A DNA stretch of 64,000 nucleotides from Thermotogaceae bacterium (lineage in GTDB: Bacteria > Thermotogota > Thermotogae > B21-G9 > HyVt-16). The notes under the pieces were generated by a model that was given only the letters and a program-made list of their open reading frames with translations, was not told where the DNA came from and searched no databases. Shown one piece after another: positions 31,526 to 50,140 of the stretch (within the stretch, counting starts at the first letter, position 1; the number at the start of each line of letters is the position of its first letter). Made by a program: the position numbers and the translations under genes. The stretch is from positions 15,603 to 79,602 of the forward strand of contig JARRBB010000003.1 of NCBI GenBank assembly GCA_029981435.1, given 5' to 3'.

Positions 31526-31617
31526 GCTCCTCTCAGGGGGTGCTTGTCCTTTAAAGGATAGGCTGAGATTATACCCCTCGAACCTGAACGGGTAATGCCG
31601 GCGTAGGGAATGAGAGG
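31526..31617 (+). promoter_or_regulatory. TPP (THI-box) riboswitch aptamer
   Basis: P1 CCTCTCA...TGAGAGG encloses the conserved cores GGGGTGC, GGCTGAGA, ACCC, and GAACCTGA..GGTAATGCCGGCGTAGGGAA. Confidence 0.92.
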
Positions 31618-31633
31618 TAATACAGAGGTTTAT

Positions 31634-31673: not shown

Positions 31674-31958
31674 ATGGCTATTACAATGAGCATTCAATTG
31701 TTACCTCTTGTTAAAAACGATAAGGAACTCTATGAAATTATTGACAACGCAATAGAAATTATAGGTTCTTCAGGCTTGAAATTTGAGGTCAATGCTCATT
31801 CTACAATCGTTGAAGGAGATTTTGAAAGATTGTTGGAAATCGTTAAGAAGATCAAGGAGAATACCTTGAAAGTTTCAAAAAGGTTCGTCTTGAACGTTCA
31901 ATTTGACGTTTCAGAAAAAGGAGTAACCATAGATGAAAAAACGAAGAAGTATCGTTAA
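31674..31958 (+). CDS. MTH1187/YkoF-family thiamine-binding protein
   Basis: About 95-aa ACT-like protein. The opening (ITMSIQLLPL) and EGDFE pattern are typical of the family. First gene after the TPP riboswitch. GGAGGTG RBS. Confidence 0.65.
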   Translation: MAITMSIQLLPLVKNDKELYEIIDNAIEIIGSSGLKFEVNAHSTIVEGDFERLLEIVKKIKENTLKVSKRFVLNVQFDVSEKGVTIDEKTKKYR

Positions 31959-32709
31959 GTCTTTGGAACCATTTTTACTGATATTTCTTTTACTCTTTGT
32001 TTGGGAATTAATATGTATTCTCTTTAGGATACCAATTTATCTTTTACCAAAGCCATCTCAAGTTTTCAAAGAACTTTTCGAACAATTTTATCTTTTGATG
32101 CAACATTCAATTATAACCTTAATAGAATCCATTGCTGGTTTAATAATCGCGATGCTTTTTGGTGTTTTAATAGCAGTTATTATGAATGCTTTTAAACCTT
32201 TAGGTAGGATGCTTTATCCCATTTTGGTAATTTCACAGGCAGTTCCAATAATAGCAATTGCTCCTTTAATATTGATTTGGTTCGGTCTGGGAATTGGACC
32301 AAAGATAGGAATAGTAACCATCGTGTGTTTTTTTCCTATAGCTGTTAGCAGTTTTGAAGGTTTTAAACTTATTGATACTGATGCAATAGACATAATGAGA
32401 ACTCTAAATGCAACTAAATTTCAAATTTATAGGCATGTTGTTTTACCTTCGACGCTTCCATACATATTTTCAGGTTTAAAGATCGCAGCATCTTACTGTG
32501 TACTTGGGGCTGTGGTTGGAGAATGGTTAGGTGCAGATAAAGGTCTTGGAGTTTATATGGTCAGAGCAATGGGAGCATTTAGAACTGATAGACTTTTTGT
32601 GGCAATACTTTTAACGGTTTTTTTCAGTATTATAATTTTTAAAGTTGTTGACATTTTGTCAGAGGTCCTTTTACCCTGGGTTAAACTCAAGCAGGTTCAA
32701 GGAGGTTGA
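31933..32709 (+). CDS. thiX: ABC transporter permease (NitT/TauT type; ThiX-like HMP/FAMP importer)
   Basis: 6-TM BPD permease. TPP riboswitch context with an NMT1/THI5-like binding protein. Confidence 0.75.
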   Translation: MKKRRSIVKSLEPFLLIFLLLFVWELICILFRIPIYLLPKPSQVFKELFEQFYLLMQHSIITLIESIAGLIIAMLFGVLIAVIMNAFKPLGRMLYPILVISQAVPIIAIAPLILIWFGLGIGPKIGIVTIVCFFPIAVSSFEGFKLIDTDAIDIMRTLNATKFQIYRHVVLPSTLPYIFSGLKIAASYCVLGAVVGEWLGADKGLGVYMVRAMGAFRTDRLFVAILLTVFFSIIIFKVVDILSEVLLPWVKLKQVQGG

Positions 32710-32711
32710 AG

Positions 32712-33698
32712 ATGATGAAAAAGGTGATTTTCTCTGTTCTGATTTTTAGTCTACTCTTAGTAACCTCTTTTGCATTTGGAGATATTATCAAAGTTAAGGT
32801 AGTTCTTGACTGGTATCCTAACACGAATCACACCGGTATATATGTAGCAAAGGAACTCGGTTTTTATAAAGAGGTTGGGTTAGATGTAGAAATAAGTCAA
32901 CCATCTAAGCTAACAGCTGAGCAGCTTGTAGCAGCTCAAAAAGCTGAATTTGGAATTAGTTTTCAGGAAACTGTTACTCTTGGACGTGCACAGGGAATGC
33001 CAATTGTTTCCATTGCTGCCATAATTCAGCATAACACTTCTGGTTTTGCTGCAAGAAAAGAGGAAGGAGTAAGAACTCCGAAGGATTTTGAGGGTAAAAA
33101 GTATGGTTCCTGGGGTTCGCCAATAGAGGAAGCAACTTTGAAGTACATAATGAATCTTTATGGTGCAGATTATAAAAAGGTTAAATTCGTTGAACTTGGT
33201 GCTGTTGATTTTCTTGCAGCAACTGAGAGGGACATATGTGATTTTATGTGGATATATTACGGCTGGGAAGGGTTGGCAGCAAAGTTGAATGGAATAGATA
33301 TTTACTATTTACCCTTAAGAGAGCTTTCAGAAATTTTTGATTATTACACACCGGTTATAATCACAAACGAAAAATTAATAAAAGATTCTCCAGATATCAT
33401 AAAGAAATTCGTTTATGCCACTGCAAAAGGATATGAATATGCTATAGAACATCCAGAAGAAGCTGCGGAAATACTTCTTAAATTTGCACCTGAACTTGAT
33501 GAAAAGCTTGTTTATGAATCTCAGAAATGGTTGAAGGATCAGTACAAAGCTGATACTCCTTTTTGGGGTTATCAAAAAAGGGAAGTCTGGGAAAGGTATA
33601 CAAAATGGTTGTATGAACAGGGGTTCATTGAGGAGATGATAGATATTGAAAAAGCCTTCACAAACGAATTTTTACCGGGACAAAAAGGTACTCATTGA
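32712..33698 (+). CDS. thiY: NMT1/THI5-like substrate-binding protein (ThiY-like pyrimidine precursor binding)
   Basis: Signal peptide, then VVLDWYPNTNHTGIYVA, typical of the NMT1/THI5 fold. The ATG at 32712 lies 6 nt after GGAGG. Confidence 0.75.
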   Translation: MMKKVIFSVLIFSLLLVTSFAFGDIIKVKVVLDWYPNTNHTGIYVAKELGFYKEVGLDVEISQPSKLTAEQLVAAQKAEFGISFQETVTLGRAQGMPIVSIAAIIQHNTSGFAARKEEGVRTPKDFEGKKYGSWGSPIEEATLKYIMNLYGADYKKVKFVELGAVDFLAATERDICDFMWIYYGWEGLAAKLNGIDIYYLPLRELSEIFDYYTPVIITNEKLIKDSPDIIKKFVYATAKGYEYAIEHPEEAAEILLKFAPELDEKLVYESQKWLKDQYKADTPFWGYQKREVWERYTKWLYEQGFIEEMIDIEKAFTNEFLPGQKGTH

Positions 33699-34410
33699 TA
33701 TAAAAGATCTGGATTACTGTTTTGACGATTTACAAGTTCTCAAAAATATAAACCTTAAAATATTCGAGAAAGAATTTCTGAGTATAGTAGGCCCATCAGG
33801 ATGTGGTAAAACGACCTTACTTAAAATAATGGCAGGATTGATAGATAGCAAAAGTGGAAATGTTGAGAGAAATATATTTGATATAGCTTATATGCCTCAA
33901 AAAGGGGCCTTGTTTGAATGGAAGACACTTATTTCAAATTTAGCTTTACCTTTGATTGTGAAAGGTGAAGAAAAAAAACAAGCTTATCAAAAGGCAAGGA
34001 ATTTTTTGGAAGACTTCAATCTTGAAAAATTTGAAAATTATTACCCCTCGCAACTATCAGGTGGCATGAAACAGCGAGGGGCTTTTTTAAGAACAATGAT
34101 CACTGGTTCCGAATTAATACTCTTAGATGAACCTTTTGCCTCTGTTGATGAAATAAATCGTCGAAAACTTCAGTTATGGTTGATAGAATTACTTAGAAGA
34201 TATAGTAAAACTGTTGTACTCGTTACACATGATATAGAAGAGGCAATACTTTTATCTGATAGAATCGTGATTATGAGTGATAAGCCTTCAAAGATAATCG
34301 AAACTATAAATGTGGATATACCAAAACCACGAAGTTTGGAGAGCCTTACAGATCCAAGGTTTTCAACCTTAGAGAAAAAAATTTATGAACTTCTTGGTTC
34401 ATCGTTTTGA
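33646..34410 (+). CDS. thiZ: ABC transporter ATP-binding protein (ThiZ-like)
   Basis: Walker A GPSGCGKTT, signature LSGGMKQR, Walker B LILLDEPF. The exact start is uncertain. Confidence 0.8.
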   Translation: MKKPSQTNFYRDKKVLIDIKDLDYCFDDLQVLKNINLKIFEKEFLSIVGPSGCGKTTLLKIMAGLIDSKSGNVERNIFDIAYMPQKGALFEWKTLISNLALPLIVKGEEKKQAYQKARNFLEDFNLEKFENYYPSQLSGGMKQRGAFLRTMITGSELILLDEPFASVDEINRRKLQLWLIELLRRYSKTVVLVTHDIEEAILLSDRIVIMSDKPSKIIETINVDIPKPRSLESLTDPRFSTLEKKIYELLGSSF

Positions 34411-39274: not shown

Positions 39275-41254
39275 TCATCCCTCCTTTAAAGTTTTTTTAA
39301 TAACAAGAGATAGAATTGAAAATATAAGGAACATAACTGGAACAAGAAGATTGGGATTAGAAATGTTTTTAATGACTAAATTAGGAACATTTTTGTCTAC
39401 AAAGATAGTTGTTGAAGATGCTTTAAATATCCATAGAACTGAATTTGCAATTAAGAACAAAGAAACTGACTTATAGTACTTTCTTTTCGACAAAAACATC
39501 AATATGATCACCATAGTGGTCAAAACAATCGCTACATTTCCTTCAGGTGTTTTTTGAATTTTCACCCTGATTGGCTCGGAAGATTTTAAAGAAATATCAT
39601 TTTTAAGCTCTTCAACGTACTCAAGCATAAATTTTGTTGTATTCGATCTTTTTAAAGATTTTTCAAGATAATCGAACAGATCATCTCTCATTTCTTGAGT
39701 GAAAATAGTGGAATAATCTTTAATTCTGTTCATCACATCATCAACGAGTCTGTAAATCTTATTTTTTCTATTTTTAGAGCGCCAGTTGAAGTCTTTGATG
39801 TTTTTATCCAGTTCAGAAAGAAATGAATTGTAATTTTCCCAATTGCTAATGCTGTAAAACTCTGAAAAACTTGGAATACCCATTTTTAAAACGCTGCCTT
39901 TTGTTGAAAAATTTGAAATAGCTTTGGAGTCATATAAAGCATTAACAAGTTTTTCGAATCTTTTAATTTGATCTTTGAGTTCTGAATATTCCTTCGAAGT
40001 TAATGAATAAATTTCTGCAATTTCTCTGTTTAAATCTGAAGTTGAATCCAGATAGAGATCATGTTTCAATAGTTCATAATAAATCGAGTTTTCAAAACCT
40101 TTGAAATTAGAAATTTTCAATTCTTCTGAATCAGGATAGATAGGAATGAAAATTGAAAAGACATAGACTACTATACCCAATAATCCAACGATTGTAGCAA
40201 TAACTGAGAGTTTCTTTGCGAACAGCAGGCTCACAAATCTATACAGACTAAATAAAAGAACAAGAACAAGTAAAGAATAAACCACGCTATCGAATTTTCC
40301 AAAAAATCCTTTCGAAAAAGCTAAGATGTACAGAGATTCAAAGGAAATTATCAGGTATATTATAAGACCTAATCTTTTCCTAAAGTATATCCAGAAAACA
40401 GCTAAAAATATTGCATAAGCAATGAATCTGAGCCACCAGAAATTCAATCGTTTAGGAGTTGCTTTTACAATATCTTCAGCCATTTTCAACTGGTAAGAGC
40501 TAAGAACGCTTCGGAGTTCTCTCGCCAAGGAATTTGAAGCAATATTGATCGATCTGTTCAGTTCTTTTGAGTCCTTCGGATTAGACTTGAGTATCTCCTT
40601 TGCTTTTTGTAGTAGTATAGTTTTTATGTTCGTTTCCTGAAATATTTTAATTATGTCCGAATAAAACCCATATTTATCAGCAGAGAATTCGGGGAGATTT
40701 GTTTTGATAGCTACATTTCCGACTGTAGATATATCTTCAAAACCTTCAGGAACAACGTCAATCAGGCCTATCGAATAGGCAAGCAAATACTTCGAAATTT
40801 CTCTAAAATCTTTTGTCAGAAGAGAAACATAATCATTAAAAGCACTTATAAAAGCAGGAAGATTGTTTATTGTAACAGTTTTGAGGTTTTCACCCAGCAG
40901 ATTTGAGGTAATATAAGCAAGTAAACCTGCAAGAGCTATTCTTTCTTTAACCTGTGATGGTTTGTTGTTATTGTAGAAAAATGTCAGATAGTCAAAAATA
41001 TTGCTCGCGCTTTCTTTGCGTTCGACACTACCGGCTGTTTCTAACCTTATAAGTCTGTAAACGGCAAGATTTGTAAGTTCATTTTTAAGCTTGTTTGCCA
41101 GATCTGTGTTGGATTTTTCAAGATTATAATCATTTAAAAGATTTTTGTATTCTTCTAATGCTTTTTCAAGAGTGCCAGTGGATGAAAAAGATTGAGAGGC
41201 GAGTATCAGAATTATTATTATCAAATATGCTACCTTTTTTTTCATTTTCTCCAC
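39275..41254 (-). CDS. hypothetical 659-aa polytopic membrane protein (orphan)
   Basis: Signal peptide (ILILASQSFSS). About 270-aa helical ectodomain, a cluster of about 5 TM helices, a 220-aa K/E/N-rich domain, and 2-3 C-terminal TM helices. Its stop lies 4 nt from the bmp start. No family recognised. Confidence 0.6.
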   Translation of the reverse strand: MEKMKKKVAYLIIIILILASQSFSSTGTLEKALEEYKNLLNDYNLEKSNTDLANKLKNELTNLAVYRLIRLETAGSVERKESASNIFDYLTFFYNNNKPSQVKERIALAGLLAYITSNLLGENLKTVTINNLPAFISAFNDYVSLLTKDFREISKYLLAYSIGLIDVVPEGFEDISTVGNVAIKTNLPEFSADKYGFYSDIIKIFQETNIKTILLQKAKEILKSNPKDSKELNRSINIASNSLARELRSVLSSYQLKMAEDIVKATPKRLNFWWLRFIAYAIFLAVFWIYFRKRLGLIIYLIISFESLYILAFSKGFFGKFDSVVYSLLVLVLLFSLYRFVSLLFAKKLSVIATIVGLLGIVVYVFSIFIPIYPDSEELKISNFKGFENSIYYELLKHDLYLDSTSDLNREIAEIYSLTSKEYSELKDQIKRFEKLVNALYDSKAISNFSTKGSVLKMGIPSFSEFYSISNWENYNSFLSELDKNIKDFNWRSKNRKNKIYRLVDDVMNRIKDYSTIFTQEMRDDLFDYLEKSLKRSNTTKFMLEYVEELKNDISLKSSEPIRVKIQKTPEGNVAIVLTTMVIILMFLSKRKYYKSVSLFLIANSVLWIFKASSTTIFVDKNVPNLVIKNISNPNLLVPVMFLIFSILSLVIKKTLKEG

Positions 41255-41416: not shown

Positions 41417-41836
41417 ATGTACGAAGAACTTGAAATTTTGCTCAGGAGATTATGCTTCAGTGTGAAAGTCGCTGGGAGAAAAGTATTGAGAGACTTTGAC
41501 ATCACTCCTTCTCAATTTGATATGTTGCAGAAGCTCTTTTTTAAAGGTGAGATGCGTCTCACAGATTTGAGCGAAGAACTTGGAATAACCAAAGGAACTG
41601 CAAGTGGAATAATCAAGCGTCTGGTAGACTATGGATACGTAAAGAAGGTAAAAAGTCAGGTTGATAAAAGGGTCTATAATCTAAGCATAACTGACGAAGG
41701 TAGAAAAGTAATAGAGGAAGTTATAAATAAACGTGTAGAATACATAAGGAATATTTTTTCTGTTTTTGATGAATCCAAGAAAAAATCTTTTTTGGAACAA
41801 TTAAAACAGCTAACCAACATTATAGAGAATAAATAA
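41417..41836 (+). CDS. MarR family transcriptional regulator
   Basis: Winged HTH (ITPSQFDMLQKLFFKGEMRLTDLSEELGITKGTASGIIKRLVDYGYVKK..DKRV). AGGAGG RBS. Confidence 0.85.
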   Translation: MYEELEILLRRLCFSVKVAGRKVLRDFDITPSQFDMLQKLFFKGEMRLTDLSEELGITKGTASGIIKRLVDYGYVKKVKSQVDKRVYNLSITDEGRKVIEEVINKRVEYIRNIFSVFDESKKKSFLEQLKQLTNIIENK

Positions 41837-41840
41837 CAAA

Positions 41841-41861
41841 ATCCCCGGTAGAACCGGGGAT
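41841..41861. terminator. 8-bp GC hairpin; terminator for tRNA-Pro (minus strand), possibly bidirectional for marR
   Basis: ATCCCCGG-TAGAA-CCGGGGAT. The T-rich tract is present only on the minus-strand side (TTTGTTATTT). Confidence 0.55.
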
Positions 41862-41869
41862 TCAAACAA

Positions 41870-41945
41870 TGGTCGGGGTGACTGGACTTGAACCAGCGAC
41901 CTTTTGCGCCCCATGCAAACGCGCTTCCATCTGCGCCACACCCCG
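41870..41945 (-). tRNA. tRNA-Pro (anticodon GGG), CCA encoded
   Basis: Folded by hand. Acceptor CGGGGTG/CACCCCG, D arm GCGC-AGATGGAA-GCGC, anticodon arm TTTGC-AT GGG GC-GCAAA with G37, T arm GCTGG-TTCAAGT-CCAGT, discriminator A, then CCA. Length 76 nt. Confidence 0.92.
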
Positions 41946-42022
41946 CTATAGAAAATTATGTCATATTTGATCCTAAAAATCAAGGGGTTAAAGCTTTGAA
42001 AAAGAAAGGGTGGATTACTTTA

Positions 42023-44218
42023 ATGAGAATAAAGGCAATAGTATTTGCGATCGTTTTTCTACTGTGCTCAATTTCTTTTTCAAGAACATTGTTGTTATTC
42101 AAAGGCTCAGAAAAAGGTTATGGAGAAAATATCTTAAAAAGCTTAGTTGTACCGGTTCTTGAAAAACTTGGTGAAAGTTATTCATTGAAAGATACTGAAA
42201 CAGACTTTGAGATAAATTTTCTGGACTATGATACAATAATAACCTGTTATTATTCTTCAAAGATGCAGAATGCCAAGGTTTACCTGAAAAAACTCTTCGA
42301 TTTTCTTTTGAATGGTGGAAAACTTTTTATAATCAACAATATTGGTGCAGCTTTAGACGAAAATGGCAATAATCCGAATTTATCACATTTGAATTCTATC
42401 TATAATCTGCTCGGTTTTTATTACAAATATAGCTGGCGAAAGGAAAAAATTAAATCTGTTAATATTGACAATGAATATCTTCTGAAACAGCCGATCATGG
42501 ATAATGAAAGAGGCATTGAAACATTTGAGATATTTTCTCCAAAAGTGAAAATAATAGAGGAAATAGAAACAGATACCGGAAGATATCCAACCGTTTTTCT
42601 CGGTGAAAAAGGTGGAATGATCTTGTACGATTATGCCTTTTCTGATGATGAAAGTTTGTTTCTGGATATTGGTAAGATCGTGGAAGAACTACTTTGCAGA
42701 CGTGGGAGTTTAGAAAATAAAGTGCTCATCATCGGTTATTCTCAGGATGTGAGAAAGACTTTTGAAAATTCGCTATTTGAAATTGAAAATAAGAACAATA
42801 TTGATTCAATTGATTCATTTGAATGTGAGAATTTCAAAGCAATAATATTAATTGATGATGCTTCTCCAACCGCTAATTCGAAAATTCAAAAATATCTTGA
42901 AAATGGTGGTACCGTAATCTGGATTGGTAATGGCTCTAAAGAAATATACGGAGAAATAGTATTCAAAAGTGATTTTTTGATGATTCCCAAGGATATTGTT
43001 TTTGACAAAAGAACAGTTAAATTCCAGCAAGCGACTAAAGGTTCCAAGGTCATAATACAGGTAAATGATACTGTAGTATCATGGATTTCAAAAGTTGGAA
43101 AAGGTAATATCTTTTTCTTTCCAAGATCTTTGCTTGGAAAAGTAACACGCGGAATTCTAATGAACGGACTATTGTTAGCATCGAATAGCATTATATGTCC
43201 GATTGTTAACAGTTATTCTGTGTTTCTTGACGATTTTCCACTTCCTTCGTACAACAGTGTAAAAGAAGAGATAATTAAGGAGTTTGGAAATATTGATACT
43301 TCTCAATTCTATTATCAGGTATGGTGGAAAGATATGAAAGAATTATCGAGAGAGTTGAATTTAAAATACACTGCTGCTCTGGTTACCACTTATAACTCAT
43401 CCAAATCGTTTCCCAATGATTTCAGTGATTTTCTGATATCCGTACCGTTGAGTTATTTGGAGATGCTTTTGAAATCTAGCGAAATAGAAATTGGAATACA
43501 TGGATACAATCATCTATCACCTATAAAAGATAACTGGACGAAAGAAGATCTTGTAAAATCTTATAAAGCCTTGAAGATATTTGTTGAAAATATCGCAGAA
43601 AATTACAAACCTCTATCATTCGTTGCTCCTAACAATAAGATAGATGATATGGGCTTTGAAGCACTTAGAAGTGCCTTTCCTTCCATAAAGCTCATAGGAA
43701 CCGCTTATTCAGGAAATGATGAATACAGTGAATTCGGTGTAAAGAATGGTGTTGTAATACTTCCAAGAACCACCTCGGGATATTATCCCATCGAAAAGCT
43801 TATATTATCTTCTATTTCAGCTGTTCTAAATATGGGAACTTTCCAGTATTTCGTTCATCCAGATGATTTGTTTTCAAATGATAGAAATCCTGAGAAATTG
43901 TCTTGGAAAGATATGAAAAAAAATTTCAAAGAATTTATAGAAACAATACAGCGATATTATCCATGGCTTAGAAATAATTATTCCTATGAAGCAGGTGTTA
44001 TTTTCAGAGATTATTTTACAAAAAGGCCGGATATAAGATATTCTCAGGATAGAATAGAAATTATTGTTGAACCGGAAACAAGATTACCAAGATACTTTTT
44101 CTTGAAAACAAATAAAAATTTTAACATTATTGGAGGTAAGATAATATATAATTATAAAAATAATGTATATGTTGTTGAAATGTTTGAAACACCAATGATT
44201 ATTCAGGAGTATGATTAA
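42023..44218 (+). CDS. secreted DUF2194-like protein with CE4-type polysaccharide deacetylase motifs (PelA deacetylase-domain analogue)
   Basis: Start moved to the ATG at 42023, because the track's ORF begins inside the tRNA. Signal peptide MRIKAIVFAIVFLLCSISFS. In the C-terminal half: FLDDFP (43229-43234 encodes DD), HGYNH (43499-43513), FVAPNN, FVHPDD. First gene of the pelG/pelD cluster. Confidence 0.6.
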   Translation: MRIKAIVFAIVFLLCSISFSRTLLLFKGSEKGYGENILKSLVVPVLEKLGESYSLKDTETDFEINFLDYDTIITCYYSSKMQNAKVYLKKLFDFLLNGGKLFIINNIGAALDENGNNPNLSHLNSIYNLLGFYYKYSWRKEKIKSVNIDNEYLLKQPIMDNERGIETFEIFSPKVKIIEEIETDTGRYPTVFLGEKGGMILYDYAFSDDESLFLDIGKIVEELLCRRGSLENKVLIIGYSQDVRKTFENSLFEIENKNNIDSIDSFECENFKAIILIDDASPTANSKIQKYLENGGTVIWIGNGSKEIYGEIVFKSDFLMIPKDIVFDKRTVKFQQATKGSKVIIQVNDTVVSWISKVGKGNIFFFPRSLLGKVTRGILMNGLLLASNSIICPIVNSYSVFLDDFPLPSYNSVKEEIIKEFGNIDTSQFYYQVWWKDMKELSRELNLKYTAALVTTYNSSKSFPNDFSDFLISVPLSYLEMLLKSSEIEIGIHGYNHLSPIKDNWTKEDLVKSYKALKIFVENIAENYKPLSFVAPNNKIDDMGFEALRSAFPSIKLIGTAYSGNDEYSEFGVKNGVVILPRTTSGYYPIEKLILSSISAVLNMGTFQYFVHPDDLFSNDRNPEKLSWKDMKKNFKEFIETIQRYYPWLRNNYSYEAGVIFRDYFTKRPDIRYSQDRIEIIVEPETRLPRYFFLKTNKNFNIIGGKIIYNYKNNVYVVEMFETPMIIQEYD

Positions 44219-45604
44219 ATGGCTGGTATAGGTTTTAAATTAAAAAGAATACTTTCAAAGGAATTTTTCTTAACTGATTTAACTACATTTCTCTATTCAG
44301 TTCTTATAACCGCTGGGCCTTGGGTTATTTCGTCAATATCGTTACTTATAATTTTCAAGTTTATAGGTGTTGAAGATAGATTCTTTGTTGGTAGTACTGC
44401 TTATTCATTTATATTTTCCATGGTACTCTCTGGTGGGTTCAGTTTTTTGATCATAAGAGTTGTTGCTGATCTGACATATGAAAAGAAATATGCCGAAATA
44501 TATCGCAATTATTCTGGAGCAATCATATTGATCTTTATTATTTCAGCGATTTTATCAGCCCTATTCTTTACAATAAACGATGATTATACTTTTCAACAAA
44601 AGTTTCTGGCGTCATATCTTTTTGTAGTTTTATCTTTGATTTGGACTCAAACAATTTTCTTATCTGCAACTGAGGATTACAGACCAGCTGTTTTTTCTTT
44701 CGTTTCTGGTTTTTCAATAGCAGTTCTTTTAGCTTATTTTTTAAAGAAGCTCGACAATGGCACACTCATTTCTTTTGATGTTGGTATGGGGTTCATCCTG
44801 TTTTTGCAGAATATCTACATTGTTAAATCCTTTAAACGTTCTGGAAAACCGAGTTTTTATTTTTTAAAAAACTTGAGAAAATATCCACAGAATCTTTTTA
44901 TAGGCTTTCTCTATTATTTTTCCGTCTGGATAGACGATATAATTGCCTGGTTTAAATCAGGTGAAATCCTATTACCTGGTTTCAGATTTTCTTCAATGTA
45001 TGATTTGCCAATGTTTGTAGCGTATTTATTCATTATTCCAGCCCTTTCAATGTTTGTATTACAAATAGAAACAGAATTTTATCTTGAATACAGAAGATTT
45101 TTCATGAATTTGGAACAAAATAAACCTCTTAGAAATATTGTGCTTCAGAAAAAACGTATGAAGGATTCTCTTTTGTATTCGATAAAAAACATTCTGATAG
45201 TTCAACTTTCTGCAGCTTTCATAGGATTGCTTTTAAGTTCAATAATAGGTGAAAATTTAGGTTTTTCAAATGTTTCGTTATATATTTTCAGGTTAGGTAT
45301 TATCGGTGCGAGTTTTAATTCTTTATTTTTGACACTGATTCTGATAAATCTATATTTTGATTTTAGAGATATAGTTCTCGAAAGTGTTGTTTTGACTTTT
45401 GGAACAAACTTTATTGTTTCCATGATAACCTTTGAAGAGGTTCCTGGCTTAGGTTTTGTTCTTGCGTTCTTTTTAGGGACATTGTATATCTTTTTAAGAT
45501 TCTATAGAAGATATAAGGAACTTATATTCTATGTTTATATAACACAGCCAACAAATCTTCCAAAATCGAAAAAGAAAATTCTGAAGTTAGGTGAGGAGGC
45601 ATAA
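44219..45604 (+). CDS. pelG: exopolysaccharide Pel export/polymerisation membrane protein PelG
   Basis: N-terminus MAGIGFKLKRILSKE....GPWVISSISLL and internal MYDLPMFVAYLFIIPALSMFVLQIETEFYLEYRRFF match the PelG hallmark blocks as I recall them from Pseudomonas PelG. About 12 TM helices, 461 aa. Confidence 0.85.
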   Translation: MAGIGFKLKRILSKEFFLTDLTTFLYSVLITAGPWVISSISLLIIFKFIGVEDRFFVGSTAYSFIFSMVLSGGFSFLIIRVVADLTYEKKYAEIYRNYSGAIILIFIISAILSALFFTINDDYTFQQKFLASYLFVVLSLIWTQTIFLSATEDYRPAVFSFVSGFSIAVLLAYFLKKLDNGTLISFDVGMGFILFLQNIYIVKSFKRSGKPSFYFLKNLRKYPQNLFIGFLYYFSVWIDDIIAWFKSGEILLPGFRFSSMYDLPMFVAYLFIIPALSMFVLQIETEFYLEYRRFFMNLEQNKPLRNIVLQKKRMKDSLLYSIKNILIVQLSAAFIGLLLSSIIGENLGFSNVSLYIFRLGIIGASFNSLFLTLILINLYFDFRDIVLESVVLTFGTNFIVSMITFEEVPGLGFVLAFFLGTLYIFLRFYRRYKELIFYVYITQPTNLPKSKKKILKLGEEA

Positions 45605-46803
45605 TGAAAAAGATTTTTATAACCTTATTAGAGATTGTTTTTATTTATCTGTTTATATTTTTTATCGATATAATTACACAATCAAATATTTTTCAAACTT
45701 TTTCGTTCAATATCTACTGGATCCCTTTACTTTTTTACTCTATTAGAGGCGGTCTTGTAAGTTTTTTAGCATCTATCTCATCTTACATCATTGTGGTCAT
45801 ACTTTCTTCCTTTTTACAGAAAAGCGGTTTTTCAGCTGGATTTCTTATCGGAAGCGCAATAACGATGGGGTTAGCTACTTTGTTTAGATTAATGTTCGAG
45901 GTGCGAAGACACAAGATAGAGGAGCTTAAGCTGGACCTCGAAGAAAAAGAAGAAGATATAAAAAAACTTGAAGCAAACATTGAGGATTTGAAAGCATTGA
46001 TAGAATCTTTGAAAAAAAGATTGATTTATGAAGGTGAAGGATTATCTGCACTTTTTTCGAGGTTAAGAGATTTACCGCTGGATGATCCTGAGGTTTTGCT
46101 TTATGAATTTCTGCGGGTTATATCTGAATTTTTTGAGATCGATAAAATGTCCATCTACAAATATAAAAATGGTTTTTTCAGATTTGTTGCTGGTAAAGGC
46201 TTACCGATCCTTGGTTTTACATTTAGAGAGGAAGATTCTGTGGTTGTTAGAAGAGCTCTTGAAATAGGTTATGCTAAGATAACCGATGTTATTTTGGAAA
46301 GTGAAATACAAAAGTTGGAGCCCTGGTTAGTAGCGTTAATAGGTCCTAAAGAAGATCCTTATGGCGTACTGATTGTTGAGGAAATAGCACCTGAGAAGTT
46401 GTCATCTACTTATGAAAAATATCTTTGGTCTTTGGGCGGATGGTTGCATGGTGTTATGAAACGTTTTGATAGATTTGCGAAAGCAGAGAAAGAAAGACAT
46501 TTGGTTGGATACAAATTATTTGACTTTGAGTATTACGAGGAGATTAAAGAAGATTTCAGAAAGTCCTTTGAAGAATTTGGTATACCTTTTTCTGAGATAT
46601 GTGTGTGTGTCTATAAGGATCTTCTTGGCGAATTTTTAGATAACTTTAGAGAAGACGATGTGGCAACTAAAATAAATGAAACCAGTGATAAAGTATGTAT
46701 AAGTGTCCTTTTAGCGGCATGTGATTCAGGTGGTAAAATTGCTATTTTAGAGAGGCTAAAGAAAAAATATGGCGAGAAGATCGGTTTTTGTCAACACAAT
46801 TAA
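45604..46803 (+). CDS. pelD: PelD-like c-di-GMP receptor (4 TM, coiled coil, GAF, degenerate GGDEF with retained I-site)
   Basis: Four N-terminal TM helices and a coiled coil (residues 100-140). GAF-like core (MSIYKYKNGFFRFVAGKG..VALIGPKEDPYGVLIVEE). C-terminal REDD-x5-NETSD (46648-46689) has the RxxD-x5-GGDEF geometry. ATGA overlap with pelG. Confidence 0.6.
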   Translation: MKKIFITLLEIVFIYLFIFFIDIITQSNIFQTFSFNIYWIPLLFYSIRGGLVSFLASISSYIIVVILSSFLQKSGFSAGFLIGSAITMGLATLFRLMFEVRRHKIEELKLDLEEKEEDIKKLEANIEDLKALIESLKKRLIYEGEGLSALFSRLRDLPLDDPEVLLYEFLRVISEFFEIDKMSIYKYKNGFFRFVAGKGLPILGFTFREEDSVVVRRALEIGYAKITDVILESEIQKLEPWLVALIGPKEDPYGVLIVEEIAPEKLSSTYEKYLWSLGGWLHGVMKRFDRFAKAEKERHLVGYKLFDFEYYEEIKEDFRKSFEEFGIPFSEICVCVYKDLLGEFLDNFREDDVATKINETSDKVCISVLLAACDSGGKIAILERLKKKYGEKIGFCQHN

Positions 46804-47590
46804 TTTGATTAATTTGATTATAGGAATACTCAACTGTTTGTTTCTGATCTTAATATTTAAGAGTCTGTCGTTTTTTGTGTTTGTAGTTATAATCAATCTT
46901 TTGATATTTTTAATTGTAAATCGTGATGTAGGCCTTTTATTGATAGCTGTTTTGACATATCCAATAGGTTTAATGAATCTTTTAAAAGGTTCCGAGCAAT
47001 CTTTTCCAGATATCTTCGAAGTCGAACCCAAGGATTTTATGAATCAACCTGAAACTGTAGACATCGATGTTTTACCCTTGAAAAGTTATCTCATAGCGGG
47101 TACTCAAAGTGAAAAGAAAGTTTTGGTTCAATTAATAGTCGAGAGAATAAAGCAAAAAATCGATGTTGAAAATATGTTTGTTTTGCTCAGAAAACTGATA
47201 AATGACCCGCATCCAGATGTTGGATTATATGCTTCTGAAGTTATTGAAGAACTTGAAAATTATTATATAAGAAAGATGACGGAGAATTTTGACAACCCTG
47301 AGGTGTTTTGTGAAGCAGCTCTTGATTATATAAAGGCGGGTTTCGCATATGGAGAGTTACTAAACTATTACAAAAAAGCAGTTTTAGAGAAATTGGAAAG
47401 TATTGAGGGTTCAGAAAAATATTATCTTTTGAAATATAGATTACTTGAGGACAAGGAAATCTTGTATGAGGGTTTTGAAAAAACAAATTCTATTCAAATT
47501 ATCGATGAACTGATTAAAATAGAACTTAAAGAAAGAAATTTTGCAAAATTAAAAGAATTACTGGAACTTAGAAAAACCTTAAATACCTGA
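46769..47590 (+). CDS. PelE-like membrane protein with cytoplasmic helical-repeat domain
   Basis: Two or three N-terminal TM helices, then an all-helical, TPR/HEAT-like 190-aa domain. Assigned by position after pelD. Start at ATG 46769 or TTG 46805. Confidence 0.4.
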   Translation: MARRSVFVNTINLINLIIGILNCLFLILIFKSLSFFVFVVIINLLIFLIVNRDVGLLLIAVLTYPIGLMNLLKGSEQSFPDIFEVEPKDFMNQPETVDIDVLPLKSYLIAGTQSEKKVLVQLIVERIKQKIDVENMFVLLRKLINDPHPDVGLYASEVIEELENYYIRKMTENFDNPEVFCEAALDYIKAGFAYGELLNYYKKAVLEKLESIEGSEKYYLLKYRLLEDKEILYEGFEKTNSIQIIDELIKIELKERNFAKLKELLELRKTLNT

Positions 47591-47602
47591 ATCAACATTA
47601 TT

Positions 47603-47611
47603 TGATATAAT
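47603..47611 (+). promoter_or_regulatory. candidate extended -10 promoter (TGaTATAAT) for glgA
   Basis: TG at 47603-47604 and TATAAT at 47606-47611 in the 64-nt pelE-glgA spacer. An 8-bp hairpin TTGCCTTA/TAAGGCAA follows. Confidence 0.35.
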
Positions 47612-47657
47612 AAAAATTGCCTTATTAAACTAAGGCAAAAATCTGGAGGTGTAATTG

Positions 47658-49127
47658 ATGAAAATAGCTTTTTTTTCTTTTGAGGTTTATCCACTTGCAA
47701 AAGTTGGAGGACTTGCAGATGTGGTTGGAAGCCTTCCGAAGTTTTTAAAAAGAGAAGGTCAGGAAGTTTTTATAGTGATGCCTTTTCACAAGGTTGTTGA
47801 GAGAAATATCCAGAAATACAATTTGAAAGTTGAAAAAGTTCTGGATGCTTTTAAACCTTCTTTTGTTTCAACTAATCAGACTGCTGAAGTTTACAAGACA
47901 AACCTTCCCAACACAGATGTTGAAATTTACTTGGTAAAGAATGATTATTATTTTTCTGCTGAACAGGTATATTCTTCTCCTGATAGTGCTGAACAATCCA
48001 TATTTTTCTGTTCAGCAGGATTAGATGTTTTAAAGAAATTGGACAAAAAAGTTGATATCATTCATTCACATGATTGGCAGACTGCCTTGATTCCTGTATA
48101 TTTTAAAGCTAATTATAAAGAGGATCAGTTTTTTAAAGATACCGCTTCCGTCTTTACTATTCATAATCTTGGCTATCAGGGAATATTCGACAAAAAGTAC
48201 CTGGATTTTGCAGGCTTGCCCTGGTATTTGTACAACATAGATGCCTTGGAATTTTATGGTCAGCTCAATTTTCTAAAGGGTGGAATAGTTTTTAGTGATA
48301 TGATTACTACTGTTAGTCCTACATATTCTGAAGAAATTCGATCAGAAGAATATGGTGAAAAGTTACATGATGTCTTGAGAATCAGAGGAGATTCTCTGGT
48401 GGGGATTTTAAACGGTATAGACTATGAAGAATACAATCCGGAAACTGATAAAAGAATAAAGTATAATTACAACTCGAGTAATTTAGAAGGAAAATACAAA
48501 AACAAAACGGAACTTCAGAGGGAACTTGGACTGGAAGAGACTCTGGAAAAGCCTCTTTTTGGATTCATAGGAAGACTTGTTGATCAAAAAGGACTGGATC
48601 TTTTAAGTGAAATAATCGACTATCTTATAATGTATGATACTCAGTTTGTCCTTCTTGGTACTGGTGATCCAAAATACGAGAAGATATTTGAAGATCTGAA
48701 TAACAAATATCCCTCTAGAATGGCTGTTAAAATAACTTTTGACATCGAATTGGCTCAGAGAATATACGCTGGATGCGATATGTTCCTTATGCCTTCAAGA
48801 TATGAACCTTGTGGTCTTGGGCAAATGTACAGTCTACGGTATGGCACAATTCCGATCGTTCGTTATACTGGTGGATTGGCTGATACGGTTTTTGAGTACA
48901 ATCCCGAAAAAATGGAAGGCAATGGGTTTGGTTTTAAGGATTATAAAGCCTCAGATTTTTTAATGGCTTGTTCAAGAGGTATATATTTCTTTAAGAATGA
49001 AAAGAATCACTGGAGAAAGATCATCGAAAATGCTATGTCTACAGATGTTTCCTGGGATAAATCAGCAAGAGAATACATAAAGGTCTACAACGAAACAGTT
49101 AATAGAATAAGAAACGTTAATCATTGA
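47658..49127 (+). CDS. glgA: glycogen (starch) synthase, GT5
   Basis: N-terminal K-x-GGL motif (PLAKVGGLADVVGSLP). C-terminal MPSRYEPCGLGQMYSLRYGTIPIVRYTGGLADTV. The ATG lies 6 nt after GGAGGTG. Confidence 0.9.
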   Translation: MKIAFFSFEVYPLAKVGGLADVVGSLPKFLKREGQEVFIVMPFHKVVERNIQKYNLKVEKVLDAFKPSFVSTNQTAEVYKTNLPNTDVEIYLVKNDYYFSAEQVYSSPDSAEQSIFFCSAGLDVLKKLDKKVDIIHSHDWQTALIPVYFKANYKEDQFFKDTASVFTIHNLGYQGIFDKKYLDFAGLPWYLYNIDALEFYGQLNFLKGGIVFSDMITTVSPTYSEEIRSEEYGEKLHDVLRIRGDSLVGILNGIDYEEYNPETDKRIKYNYNSSNLEGKYKNKTELQRELGLEETLEKPLFGFIGRLVDQKGLDLLSEIIDYLIMYDTQFVLLGTGDPKYEKIFEDLNNKYPSRMAVKITFDIELAQRIYAGCDMFLMPSRYEPCGLGQMYSLRYGTIPIVRYTGGLADTVFEYNPEKMEGNGFGFKDYKASDFLMACSRGIYFFKNEKNHWRKIIENAMSTDVSWDKSAREYIKVYNETVNRIRNVNH

Positions 49128-49141
49128 GGAGGGTATTAAAT

Positions 49142-50140
49142 ATGCCGGAACTTCGTAAAGATCCTGTTATAAAACGCTGGGTTATAATAGCTACTGAACG
49201 TGCGAAAAGGCCAAAAGATTTTGCTCAGCAGGAAGAGGAGATAAAATCAACTTTCTGTCCTTTTGATTACGGTAATGAGCACCTTACTCCGCCTGAAGTA
49301 CTCGCTTTTAGACCAGCTGATACAGAGCCGAATACCCCTGGTTGGTGGATTAGGGTTGTTCCCAATAAATTTCCTGCCTTAGATCCCAACAGTAATTTAA
49401 AAAGATATGGTCAAGGGATGTACGATGCAATGAGTGGATTTGGGGCACATGAAGTTGTTATAGAAACTCCTGACCATAATACTACCCTTGCTTTGCTTCC
49501 AACAAAACAGGTTGAAGAAATTGTATGGGCATATAGACATAGGTACAATGAACTTTCGAAGGATCCGAGAGTAAAATACATTTTGATTTTCAGAAATCAT
49601 AAAAAGGATGCAGGCGCTTCACTTGCACATCCTCACAGTCAAATAATTGCAACGCCAATAGTACCAAAAAGAGCTCATGAAGAATTGAATGGTTCTAAAG
49701 AATACTATGAATACAAGGAAAGATGTGTTTTTTGCGATATGATAGATCAGGAAAAAGCAGATGACAAAAGGATTGTTGAAGAAAATGACGATTTTATATC
49801 CTTTGAACCTTTTGCAGCACGTTTCCCTTTTGAAACTTGGATTCTTCCCAAAGCTCACCAGAACAATTTTTCAGATATAACTGAAGAACAGGTAAAAGAA
49901 TTTGCACACATACTGAAAAATACACTTTTAAGAATTTACAAAGCACTTGATAATCCGCCATATAATTTTATGCTTCATACGTCACCTACATCTAACGATG
50001 GGAAACTGTATTATCACTGGCATCTTGAAATAGTTCCAAGGTTAACTAAGGTTGCAGGCTTTGAATGGGGATCTGGATTTTATATAAATCCTGTTCCACC
50101 TGAAGATGCTGCTAAATATCTCAGAGAAGTGGAACTCTAA
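49142..50140 (+). CDS. galT: GalT-family hexose-1-phosphate nucleotidyltransferase
   Basis: HIT-superfamily class I GalT fold with the active-site HPH (ASLAHPHSQIIATP). The ATG at 49142 sits behind GAGGAGGG. Confidence 0.8.
   Translation: MPELRKDPVIKRWVIIATERAKRPKDFAQQEEEIKSTFCPFDYGNEHLTPPEVLAFRPADTEPNTPGWWIRVVPNKFPALDPNSNLKRYGQGMYDAMSGFGAHEVVIETPDHNTTLALLPTKQVEEIVWAYRHRYNELSKDPRVKYILIFRNHKKDAGASLAHPHSQIIATPIVPKRAHEELNGSKEYYEYKERCVFCDMIDQEKADDKRIVEENDDFISFEPFAARFPFETWILPKAHQNNFSDITEEQVKEFAHILKNTLLRIYKALDNPPYNFMLHTSPTSNDGKLYYHWHLEIVPRLTKVAGFEWGSGFYINPVPPEDAAKYLREVEL

Follow-up and report, generated by a model that had tools for sequence, protein, structure and literature searches.

Positions 42023-47590 of a 64-kb stretch of DNA from an uncultivated Thermotogaceae bacterium (contig JARRBB010000003.1; the whole stretch is referred to here as the window) carry four densely packed plus-strand open reading frames (ORFs) of 731, 461, 399 and 273 amino acids, which encode homologues of PelA_DA, PelG, PelD and PelE. 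Very probably, they constitute the pelA_DA-G-D-E part of a Gram-positive-type Pel exopolysaccharide system, the synthase PelF of which is encoded by a stand-alone gene elsewhere in the genome. An earlier note, made from the sequence alone, had described four co-directional, tightly packed genes in the order A(DA)-G-D-E, and coordinates, strand and order are indeed as it gave them. For the missing pelF it had offered two explanations, either that the gene lies elsewhere or that another glycosyltransferase feeds the module. The former agrees with our finding of PelF on another contig of a metagenome-assembled genome (MAG) that also contains this locus, and the latter loses its ground with the presence of a bona fide PelF in that MAG.

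Identity of the four proteins

The first protein matches the Pfam family DUF2194 over residues 21-717 (5.8e-157), and its sole significant relative in the PDB is 9ZAU (1.1e-39, residues 343-681), the PelA_DA protein of Bacillus cereus, an alpha-1,4-N-acetylgalactosamine (GalNAc) de-N-acetylase on which CE26 and CBM114 were founded (PMC13254593). With 9ZAU residues counted along the printed alignment, where a shift of 25 residues separates the crystallised chain from the published numbering, all catalytic residues are kept, namely D262/D263 (FLDDFP), H350/H354 (HGYNH), P405 (FVAPNN), R458 (LPRTTSGY) and H488/D490/D491 (FVHPDD); the roles of these residues are those described for the B. cereus enzyme (PMC13254593). 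Judged by its sequence, the protein has what is expected of a DUF2194/CE26 de-N-acetylase, with an Asp-His-His metal triad, an Asp as the putative base and a His as the putative acid. The earlier note had assigned four of these motifs, all but LPRTTSGY, to family CE4; they do coincide with functional residues in the 9ZAU alignment, while the class is now CE26/CBM114 (PMC13254593). A hydrophobic segment at residues 1-28 corresponds to the membrane helix that was modelled against PelG in B. cereus (PMC13254593), and the protein is predicted to be either membrane-anchored or secreted. Its N-terminal half, residues 1-340, lies outside the 9ZAU alignment and is longer than the B. cereus counterpart.

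The second protein is a PelG, as had been proposed: residues 1-440 match Pfam PelG (PF16933) at full length, from position 1 to position 452 of 452 (1e-113, 381 bits, cut-off 29), and the sequence contains about 11-12 hydrophobic segments, in agreement with a polytopic membrane protein of this family.

The third protein finds nothing significant in Pfam, NCBIfam or the PDB when searched as a single sequence, and word-indexed homologue searches for genes 3 and 4 returned just three to four relatives each. An exhaustive profile search yielded 108 relatives of gene 3, and in the 45 that were aligned, Pfam recognises GAF_3 (21 proteins), GGDEF (5) and PelD_GGDEF (2) domains. The AlphaFold model built from that alignment (mean pLDDT 92.5) predicts N-terminal membrane helices, a long helix at 78-155 and two alpha/beta domains at about 160-300 and 300-399. 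In a Foldseek search of the PDB with this model, ranks 1-8 are all occupied by Pseudomonas aeruginosa PelD (2e-7 to 1.5e-6), 4EU0 and 4DN0 being among the top matches, in alignments of about 280 columns that run across the GAF and GGDEF domains; the TM-scores of these matches are low, as would be expected if the two domains were oriented differently to each other. For profile comparison, sets of PelD and PelE proteins were gathered independently, by gene position in pel loci. Against these, the window-type PelD aligns in hhalign with Nitrosospira PelD (96.4%, 1.3e-9, 364 columns) and with PelD of Firmicutes (98.9%, 1e-17), and the cross-controls of PelE versus PelD and the reverse give P = 0.46-0.68. 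A narrow Thermotogota PelD profile reaches PelD in the PDB at E = 0.2, and the broader 45-sequence profile does so at 1.4e-13, with its RxxD motif aligned to R367-D370; because this broader profile includes some recognisable PelD proteins, the latter match is partly circular, and we therefore base the assignment on Foldseek and on hhalign with the independent sets. Both agree with the PelD architecture that the earlier note had recognised.

The putative c-di-GMP-binding I-site of this PelD, R349-E-D-D352, is well preserved: in 18 relatives, R349 and D352 do not vary and R384 hardly does. R384 follows R349 by 35 residues, the same spacing as in R367/D370/R402 of P. aeruginosa PelD, and the equivalent R363/D366/R395 of B. 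cereus PelD are needed for both c-di-GMP binding and biofilm formation (PMC7112168). As REDD is followed by VATKINETS in place of GG(D/E)EF, the GGDEF domain is degenerate. The protein thus combines transmembrane helices, a GAF domain and a degenerate GGDEF domain with an intact RxxD motif and the second arginine, and is predicted from these features to bind c-di-GMP.

Two further observations concern PelD. The degenerate GGDEF domain contains the cysteines C333, C335, C365, C373 and C396 (in FSEICVC, in LLxxCDxxG and at the C-terminus), which are invariant in the closest PelD relatives, partly conserved in the wider Thermotogota set and not visible in the printed alignments to the P. aeruginosa, Nitrosospira and Firmicutes proteins; they might serve to bind a metal or to form a disulphide. 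A length of about 700 residues is common in PelD homologues (P0026-P0029 and others of about 650-770 residues; 725 in Paenibacillus, L070 4086-6263) and is due to an N-terminal SDR/epimerase-like fusion, which was already described in the 2020 paper on Gram-positive Pel and is absent from the PelD proteins of Thermotogota.

The fourth protein likewise has no Pfam, NCBIfam or PDB match in a single-sequence search. Its AlphaFold model, built on only four sequences (pLDDT 73.6), predicts three membrane helices (3-31, 33-50 and 52-73) that a disordered linker of low confidence (74-101) joins to an all-alpha helical repeat (102-271), for which pLDDT is mostly 80-95; a Foldseek search with this model gave only non-significant tetratricopeptide repeat (TPR)-like, helical-repeat or designed-repeat matches. 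An alignment of eight Thermotogota PelE proteins, however, matches the PelE proteins of Paenibacillus and Tepidibacter in hhalign (96.3%, 1.5e-9, 116 columns), which are taken from a pelDEA_DAFG operon and a pel cluster, respectively, and the two groups have the motifs LPL, DPhPDVglYAS (DP.PDV..YAS) and SGF in common. Gene 4, coding for a small membrane protein with a cytoplasmic helical-repeat domain and located beside pelD, is thus a PelE of the Gram-positive type, in line with the transmembrane and helical-repeat make-up for which it had been called PelE-like.

PelF in the same genome bin

Gene content of the window was assessed by tblastn and by Pfam searches on ORFs of at least 150 amino acids. 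Tblastn, for which three Thermotogota PelF proteins served as PelF queries, detected no PelF, pelF remnant or GH114 gene; by both approaches, the 64 kb contain no GT4, GGDEF or GH114 gene, and pelF is absent over at least 16 kb downstream and 42 kb upstream of the module. The lack of a GT4 gene, which had been noticed for the module, thus extends to the entire window.

The synthase is found in MAG GCA_030446035.1, which represents the species of the window and whose contig JASUSQ010000010.1 is 99.8% identical to positions 36772-57589 of the window. A search for PelF identified a protein of 464 amino acids (P0145) on a second contig of this MAG, JASUSQ010000016.1. It has the DUF3492+GT4 architecture of P. 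aeruginosa PelF, reaches 336.7 bits with NF038011, the equivalog model for PelF in NCBIfam (cut-off 100), and is 55% identical to the PelF of another Thermotogaceae MAG. The 17-kb neighbourhood of the gene has a GC content of 36.8%, and its tetranucleotide correlation with the window is r = 0.93, compared to 0.91-0.92 for segments of the window among themselves and 0.70-0.80 for other Thermotogota loci. The genes around pelF are unrelated to Pel. The gene is preceded by a TG-n-TATAAT box and, before that, by a strong intrinsic terminator; further upstream lies a co-directional run of L-fucose utilisation genes (LacI, ABC transporter, alpha-L-fucosidase, fucose isomerase, FucU). As the terminator insulates pelF from this run, the gene looks monocistronic. 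A PelF of the GT4 type with DUF3492 is therefore encoded in the genome, insofar as the metagenome bin is correct, and the pel genes of this genome do not share a single operon. The names given by NCBI, 'Thermotogaceae bacterium' for this PelF and 'Thermotogae bacterium' and 'Thermotogota bacterium' for a cluster mate of a window protein at 90% identity or above, agree with the Thermotogota-like character that the earlier note had ascribed to the genome.

Conservation and gene order across the Thermotogota

The layout without an adjacent pelF is not confined to the window. The A_DA-G-D-E-glgA arrangement recurs on a Logan contig of a related species, with 82% identity at the nucleotide level and 78-83% amino acid identity for the pel genes. 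Between the two, the ratio of non-synonymous to synonymous substitution rates (dN/dS) is 0.10-0.12 for each of the four pel genes, at a dS of about 0.8-1.2. The module is thus under purifying selection, and the pel genes have been kept by it after parting from pelF. For glgA, the gene 3' of pelE, the same comparison gives a dN/dS of 0.03 and 92% identity.

The same four genes, with PelF adjacent, occur in Thermotoga neapolitana, a Thermotogaceae MAG, Mesoaciditoga, Marinitoga and Thermosipho (Table 1), so that the co-conservation on which the earlier note had made its proposal depend is borne out. For these comparisons, synteny was taken from PelF matches and contig look-ups; a scan of genome contigs with a PelG alignment, run on two peptide patterns, yielded little besides Nitrosospira and one Thermotogaceae MAG and did not bring up the genome of the window; its Nitrosospira loci supplied the proteobacterial PelD and PelE proteins. 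Fervidobacterium represents a second, different split of the pel genes within the phylum, as no pelG, pelD or pelE lies within 10 kb of its pelF/DUF2194 pair. The statement in the earlier note that Pel clusters always include PelF is thus too strict, this locus being divided as well. In every Thermotogota layout that holds both, the DUF2194 gene adjoins pelG, in keeping with the contact between PelA_DA and PelG in the B. cereus model. The pel clusters of Marinitoga, Thermosipho and Thermotoga are flanked by genes linked to c-di-GMP, coding for PilZ and HD/HD_5 proteins (possibly of the HD-GYP type), as would be expected if Pel is controlled by c-di-GMP in this phylum. Outer-layer export genes of the PelB/PelC type were found in none of six Thermotogota pel loci.

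Among side observations on these loci, T. neapolitana has two tandem Pel modules, each with a pelF of its own, of which the first lacks a DUF2194 gene; between them lies a GH114 gene of the MJ1477/TM1410 family. Directly 5' of pelF, the loci of Marinitoga, Thermosipho and Mesoaciditoga encode single-helix membrane proteins of 130-167 amino acids; those of Marinitoga and Thermosipho are homologues, and neither the window nor the pelF locus of the MAG has a counterpart.

Organisation and flanks of the locus

The stop codon of pelA_DA is directly followed by the start codon of pelG (TAA, ATG), confirming the 0-nt gap reported in the earlier note. The junction of pelG and pelD, which had been described as an ATGA overlap, is TAATG, an overlap of 1 nt in which the stop is TAA rather than TGA. 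Between pelD and pelE, a 35-nt or a 1-nt junction had been left to choose from, and both starts exist: the upstream ATG overlaps pelD by 35 nt, and a TTG lies 1 base past the pelD stop. We favour the upstream ATG, as four relatives likewise have the two genes overlapping, by 29-41 nt. At the 5' end, gene 1 could be read as a longer ORF of 776 amino acids from a TTG at 41888; however, this ORF would cross the opposite-strand tRNA-Pro(GGG) gene, for which reason we consider it an artefact and the ATG at 42023 the true start.

The Shine-Dalgarno-like sequence AAAGGGTGGA sits 5' of this ATG, and the promoter of the module presumably lies within the intergenic region that separates it from the tRNA gene. 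An Rfam search of the module's upstream region found no riboswitch, including those of the c-di-GMP type. The GC-rich hairpin between the tRNA and marR genes has its sole tailed terminator match on the minus strand, downstream of tRNA-Pro; on the plus strand, 3' of marR, it has no T-run. The MarR-family regulator matches the 'MarR_EPS' model weakly (20.7 bits, cut-off 88), and its gene does not adjoin the pel genes in the other Thermotogota loci examined; a regulatory tie to the pel module would thus be hypothetical. Downstream, the spacer to glgA contains a promoter-like box and a hairpin lacking a T-tail, and with this arrangement read-through from the pel genes into glgA would be conceivable; a GalT-like gene follows glgA.

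The remaining genes of the window are those of an ordinary chromosome, with functions in translation, as chaperones, in transport and in central metabolism. Two features may be mentioned in passing. A thiamine pyrophosphate (TPP) riboswitch precedes the operon of an ABC transporter whose binding protein is NMT1/THI5-like, and an ORF of 659 amino acids with no Pfam match at E <= 1e-5 heads an operon for a BMP-family (PnrA-like) ABC transporter and recurs in the MAG copy of the locus (656 amino acids).

Table 1. Features of the window and of pel loci in other Thermotogota. Positions refer to the window unless preceded by a locus number (L).
Feature	Position	Strand	Description
TPP riboswitch	31526-31627	+	Rfam RF00059, 65.4 bits
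ABC transporter operon	31933-34410		3' of the TPP riboswitch
659-residue ORF	39275-41254	-	
MarR-family regulator gene	41417-41836	+	directly 5' of the module
GC-rich hairpin	41839-41863		
tRNA-Pro(GGG)	41870-41945	-	between marR and pelA_DA
5' intergenic region	41946-42022	+	77 nt, from tRNA-Pro(GGG) to ATG 42023; presumed promoter and ribosome-binding site
pelA_DA	42023-44218	+	731 aa; DUF2194, CE26-type de-N-acetylase, N-terminal hydrophobic helix
pelG	44219-45604	+	461 aa; PF16933, polytopic membrane protein, predicted MOP-superfamily exporter
pelD	45604-46803	+	399 aa; transmembrane helices, coiled coil, GAF, degenerate GGDEF; predicted c-di-GMP receptor
pelE	46769-47590	+	273 aa; three transmembrane helices, linker, all-alpha helical repeat; predicted assembly hub
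pelE-glgA spacer	47591-47654		TATAAT box, hairpin 47617-47638 without T-tail on the + strand, GGAGG site
glgA	47655-49127	+	GT5 glycogen synthase; begins 64 nt 3' of pelE; TIGR02095 587.6 bits
glgA and GalT-like gene	47655-50140	+	
Terminator and TG-n-TATAAT box	L021 7931-7972		5' of pelF in MAG GCA_030446035.1
Thermotoga neapolitana	L001 7431-19930		G-D-E, then GH114 and A_DA-G-D-E; each set with a convergent DUF3492+GT4 gene
Thermotogaceae MAG			A_DA-G-D-E, F convergent
Mesoaciditoga			GH114-A_DA-G-D-E, F divergent
Marinitoga, Thermosipho			D-E-x-F-G-A_DA, with GH114
Fervidobacterium sp.	L067 10001-13628		only F-A_DA together
c-di-GMP-linked flanking genes	L068 6653-7324; L069 551-2233, 5855-7156; L001 19994-20762		PilZ, HD/HD_5
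Small proteins 5' of pelF	L068 9483-9986; L069 9616-10008; L066 9606-10004		single-helix membrane proteins

Proposed working and alternative explanations

How might this system work? By analogy with B. cereus and P. aeruginosa (PMC7112168, PMC13254593), c-di-GMP would bind to the I-site of PelD (R349xxD352, R384) on the degenerate GGDEF domain. PelD, PelE and PelG would together hold PelF at the membrane and license the polymerisation of a UDP-activated N-acetylhexosamine (HexNAc), most likely UDP-GalNAc, and PelG would transfer the chain through the cytoplasmic membrane. PelA_DA, kept beside PelG by its N-terminal helix, would then partially de-N-acetylate the polymer at its Asp-His-His metal site, which would result in a cationic matrix polymer. 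Complex formation, substrate, polymer chemistry, c-di-GMP gating and the whereabouts of the finished polymer with respect to the toga are all inferred, and the predicted product is a partially de-N-acetylated alpha-1,4-GalNAc polymer for biofilm formation.

Several points weigh against this interpretation. The link between PelF and the window is made by a metagenome bin and by nucleotide composition rather than by a closed genome, and the run lists of the two MAG contigs, while belonging to the same run series, have no identical run among those displayed. PelE, besides having no significant match as a single sequence or by structure, compares only marginally with the proteobacterial PelE of Nitrosospira (P = 0.006). 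The window contains no gene for a PelA_H-type hydrolase (GH114/GH166), for a diguanylate cyclase or for a UDP-GalNAc epimerase. None of the Thermotogota loci examined has a toga-crossing component analogous to PelB/PelC, leaving the final step unexplained. Finally, a literature search brought up no experimental work on Pel for any Thermotogota, which agrees with the earlier note in so far as it regarded a Pel polymer in a toga-bearing organism as new territory.

The missing outer-layer component leads to the question of where the polymer would go. In a toga-bearing cell, a monoderm-type Pel system with an uncoupled synthase gene could deposit its product beneath or within the toga, or the polymer could cross this layer by an undescribed route, and the supply of synthase might be regulated separately from the c-di-GMP-gated platform. 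The evidence that points this way is the absence of recognisable outer-layer export genes, and nothing positive beyond it, so that we consider this scenario unlikely. Somewhat less likely still is that the proteins are true homologues of PelDEFG and PelA_DA whose polymer is made or placed differently, be it toga-associated, periplasmic or composed of another HexNAc. That the cluster is of the monoderm type, with a DUF2194 PelA_DA and without PelB or PelC, although Thermotogota possess an outer toga, that the six loci lack any outer-layer export gene, and that residues 1-340 of PelA_DA exceed their B. cereus counterpart and fall outside the PDB alignment would all be compatible with such a deviation. 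However, the catalytic residues of the CE domain and the overall DUF2194 profile are conserved, PelF passes the equivalog cut-off, and the sequences hold no positive sign of a different substrate.

A further possibility is that the module is fed by another glycosyltransferase, the GT5 enzyme encoded immediately downstream being the obvious candidate; in that case the product would be something other than Pel, and PelF would have no bearing on the locus. The GT-B gene does share the strand of pelE, which it follows without an intervening T-tailed terminator, the adjacency of pelE and glgA recurs in the relative with 78-83% amino acid identity, and PelF is not encoded in cis. Yet the protein is an unambiguous glycogen synthase of the ADP-glucose type, far exceeding the TIGR02095 cut-off of 328 bits and matching Glyco_transf_5 at 5.4e-80, and its gene is followed by the GalT-like gene and preceded by a TATAAT box and a GGAGG site of its own. 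It is also under tighter constraint than the pel genes, both in identity and in dN/dS, which fits a housekeeping role. Moreover, every other Thermotogota locus examined pairs these genes with PelF and not with GlgA, and PelF is present in the same MAG. We regard this explanation as very improbable, and have rejected GlgA as an alternative synthase on the grounds of its glycogen synthase match, its tighter constraint and the PelF of the MAG. Least credible of all is that the four genes are the decaying remnant of a rearrangement that removed pelF, with the polymer no longer made: the locus lacks pelF, a direct neighbour of these genes in several relatives, and no GH114 hydrolase gene is nearby, but four intact reading frames with catalytic and ligand-binding residues kept, the low dN/dS in two lineages that share the layout without pelF downstream, the retained overlapping or abutting start and stop codons, and, in the same MAG, an intact PelF whose promoter region is its own and bounded by a terminator are hardly what decay would leave behind.

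The interpretation that we prefer, a Gram-positive-type Pel system with pelF at another locus, removes an apparent anomaly, as what seemed to be a Pel export module without a synthase is a normal Pel system with its genes in two places. It follows that operon catalogues which demand adjacency of pelF and pelG will miss lineages of this kind. More generally, pel gene order is unusually fluid within the Thermotogota, and how a cationic polymer made by Gram-positive-type machinery would relate to the toga is a modestly interesting question.

Comparison with known Pel systems

Pel in this phylum is not without precedent. A 2020 operon survey reported Pel operons in Thermotogales (PMC7112194), and NCBI already names a 'GT4 family glycosyltransferase PelF' in Thermotoga, Fervidobacterium, Marinitoga, Thermosipho, Mesoaciditoga and Pseudothermotoga, so that the suggestion in the earlier note of a perhaps uncatalogued lineage finds no support.

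Compared to the Gram-negative system of P. aeruginosa, pelABCDEFG, the system described here is alike in the fold and I-site of PelD, in the PelG family and in the architecture of PelF. It differs in that P. aeruginosa has PelB (TPR and porin) and PelC, whereas neither these nor a bifunctional GH166+CE21 PelA were detected in the window or in the six loci; in place of PelA there is a membrane-anchored deacetylase of the DUF2194 type that lacks a GH166 hydrolase domain, the likeness of its PelE to proteobacterial PelE is marginal, and its genes do not form one operon.

A likeness also exists to the Gram-positive pelDEA_DAFG system of B. cereus ATCC 10987 (PMC7112168, PMC13254593), which likewise consists of PelD, PelE, a DUF2194 PelA_DA, PelF and PelG, with no PelB or PelC. 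The catalytic residue set of PelA_DA is identical in the two, and PelD has in both cases the succession of transmembrane helices, GAF and degenerate GGDEF with RxxD. However, the order D-E-A_DA-F-G of B. cereus contrasts with A_DA-G-D-E in the window, where pelF is separate and monocistronic, and the B. cereus host is a monoderm rather than a toga-bearing member of the Thermotogota. The window PelA_DA is about 120 residues longer at its N-terminus, no PelA_H hydrolase gene lies near the module, and the system is so far known from sequence.

Cultivated Thermotogota such as T. neapolitana, Mesoaciditoga lauensis, Marinitoga and Thermosipho have orthologous proteins, which are 33-43% (PelG), 35-40% (PelD) and about 36% (PelE) identical to those of the window. 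T. neapolitana and Mesoaciditoga, together with the Thermotogaceae MAG, also have the A_DA-G-D-E order and the overlap of pelD and pelE. In the cultivated species, pelF stands beside the other genes and GH114 is often present, whereas the lineage of the window has glgA downstream instead. What is particular here is thus the A_DA-G-D-E order with a relocated pelF, a change in gene organisation and not in mechanism.

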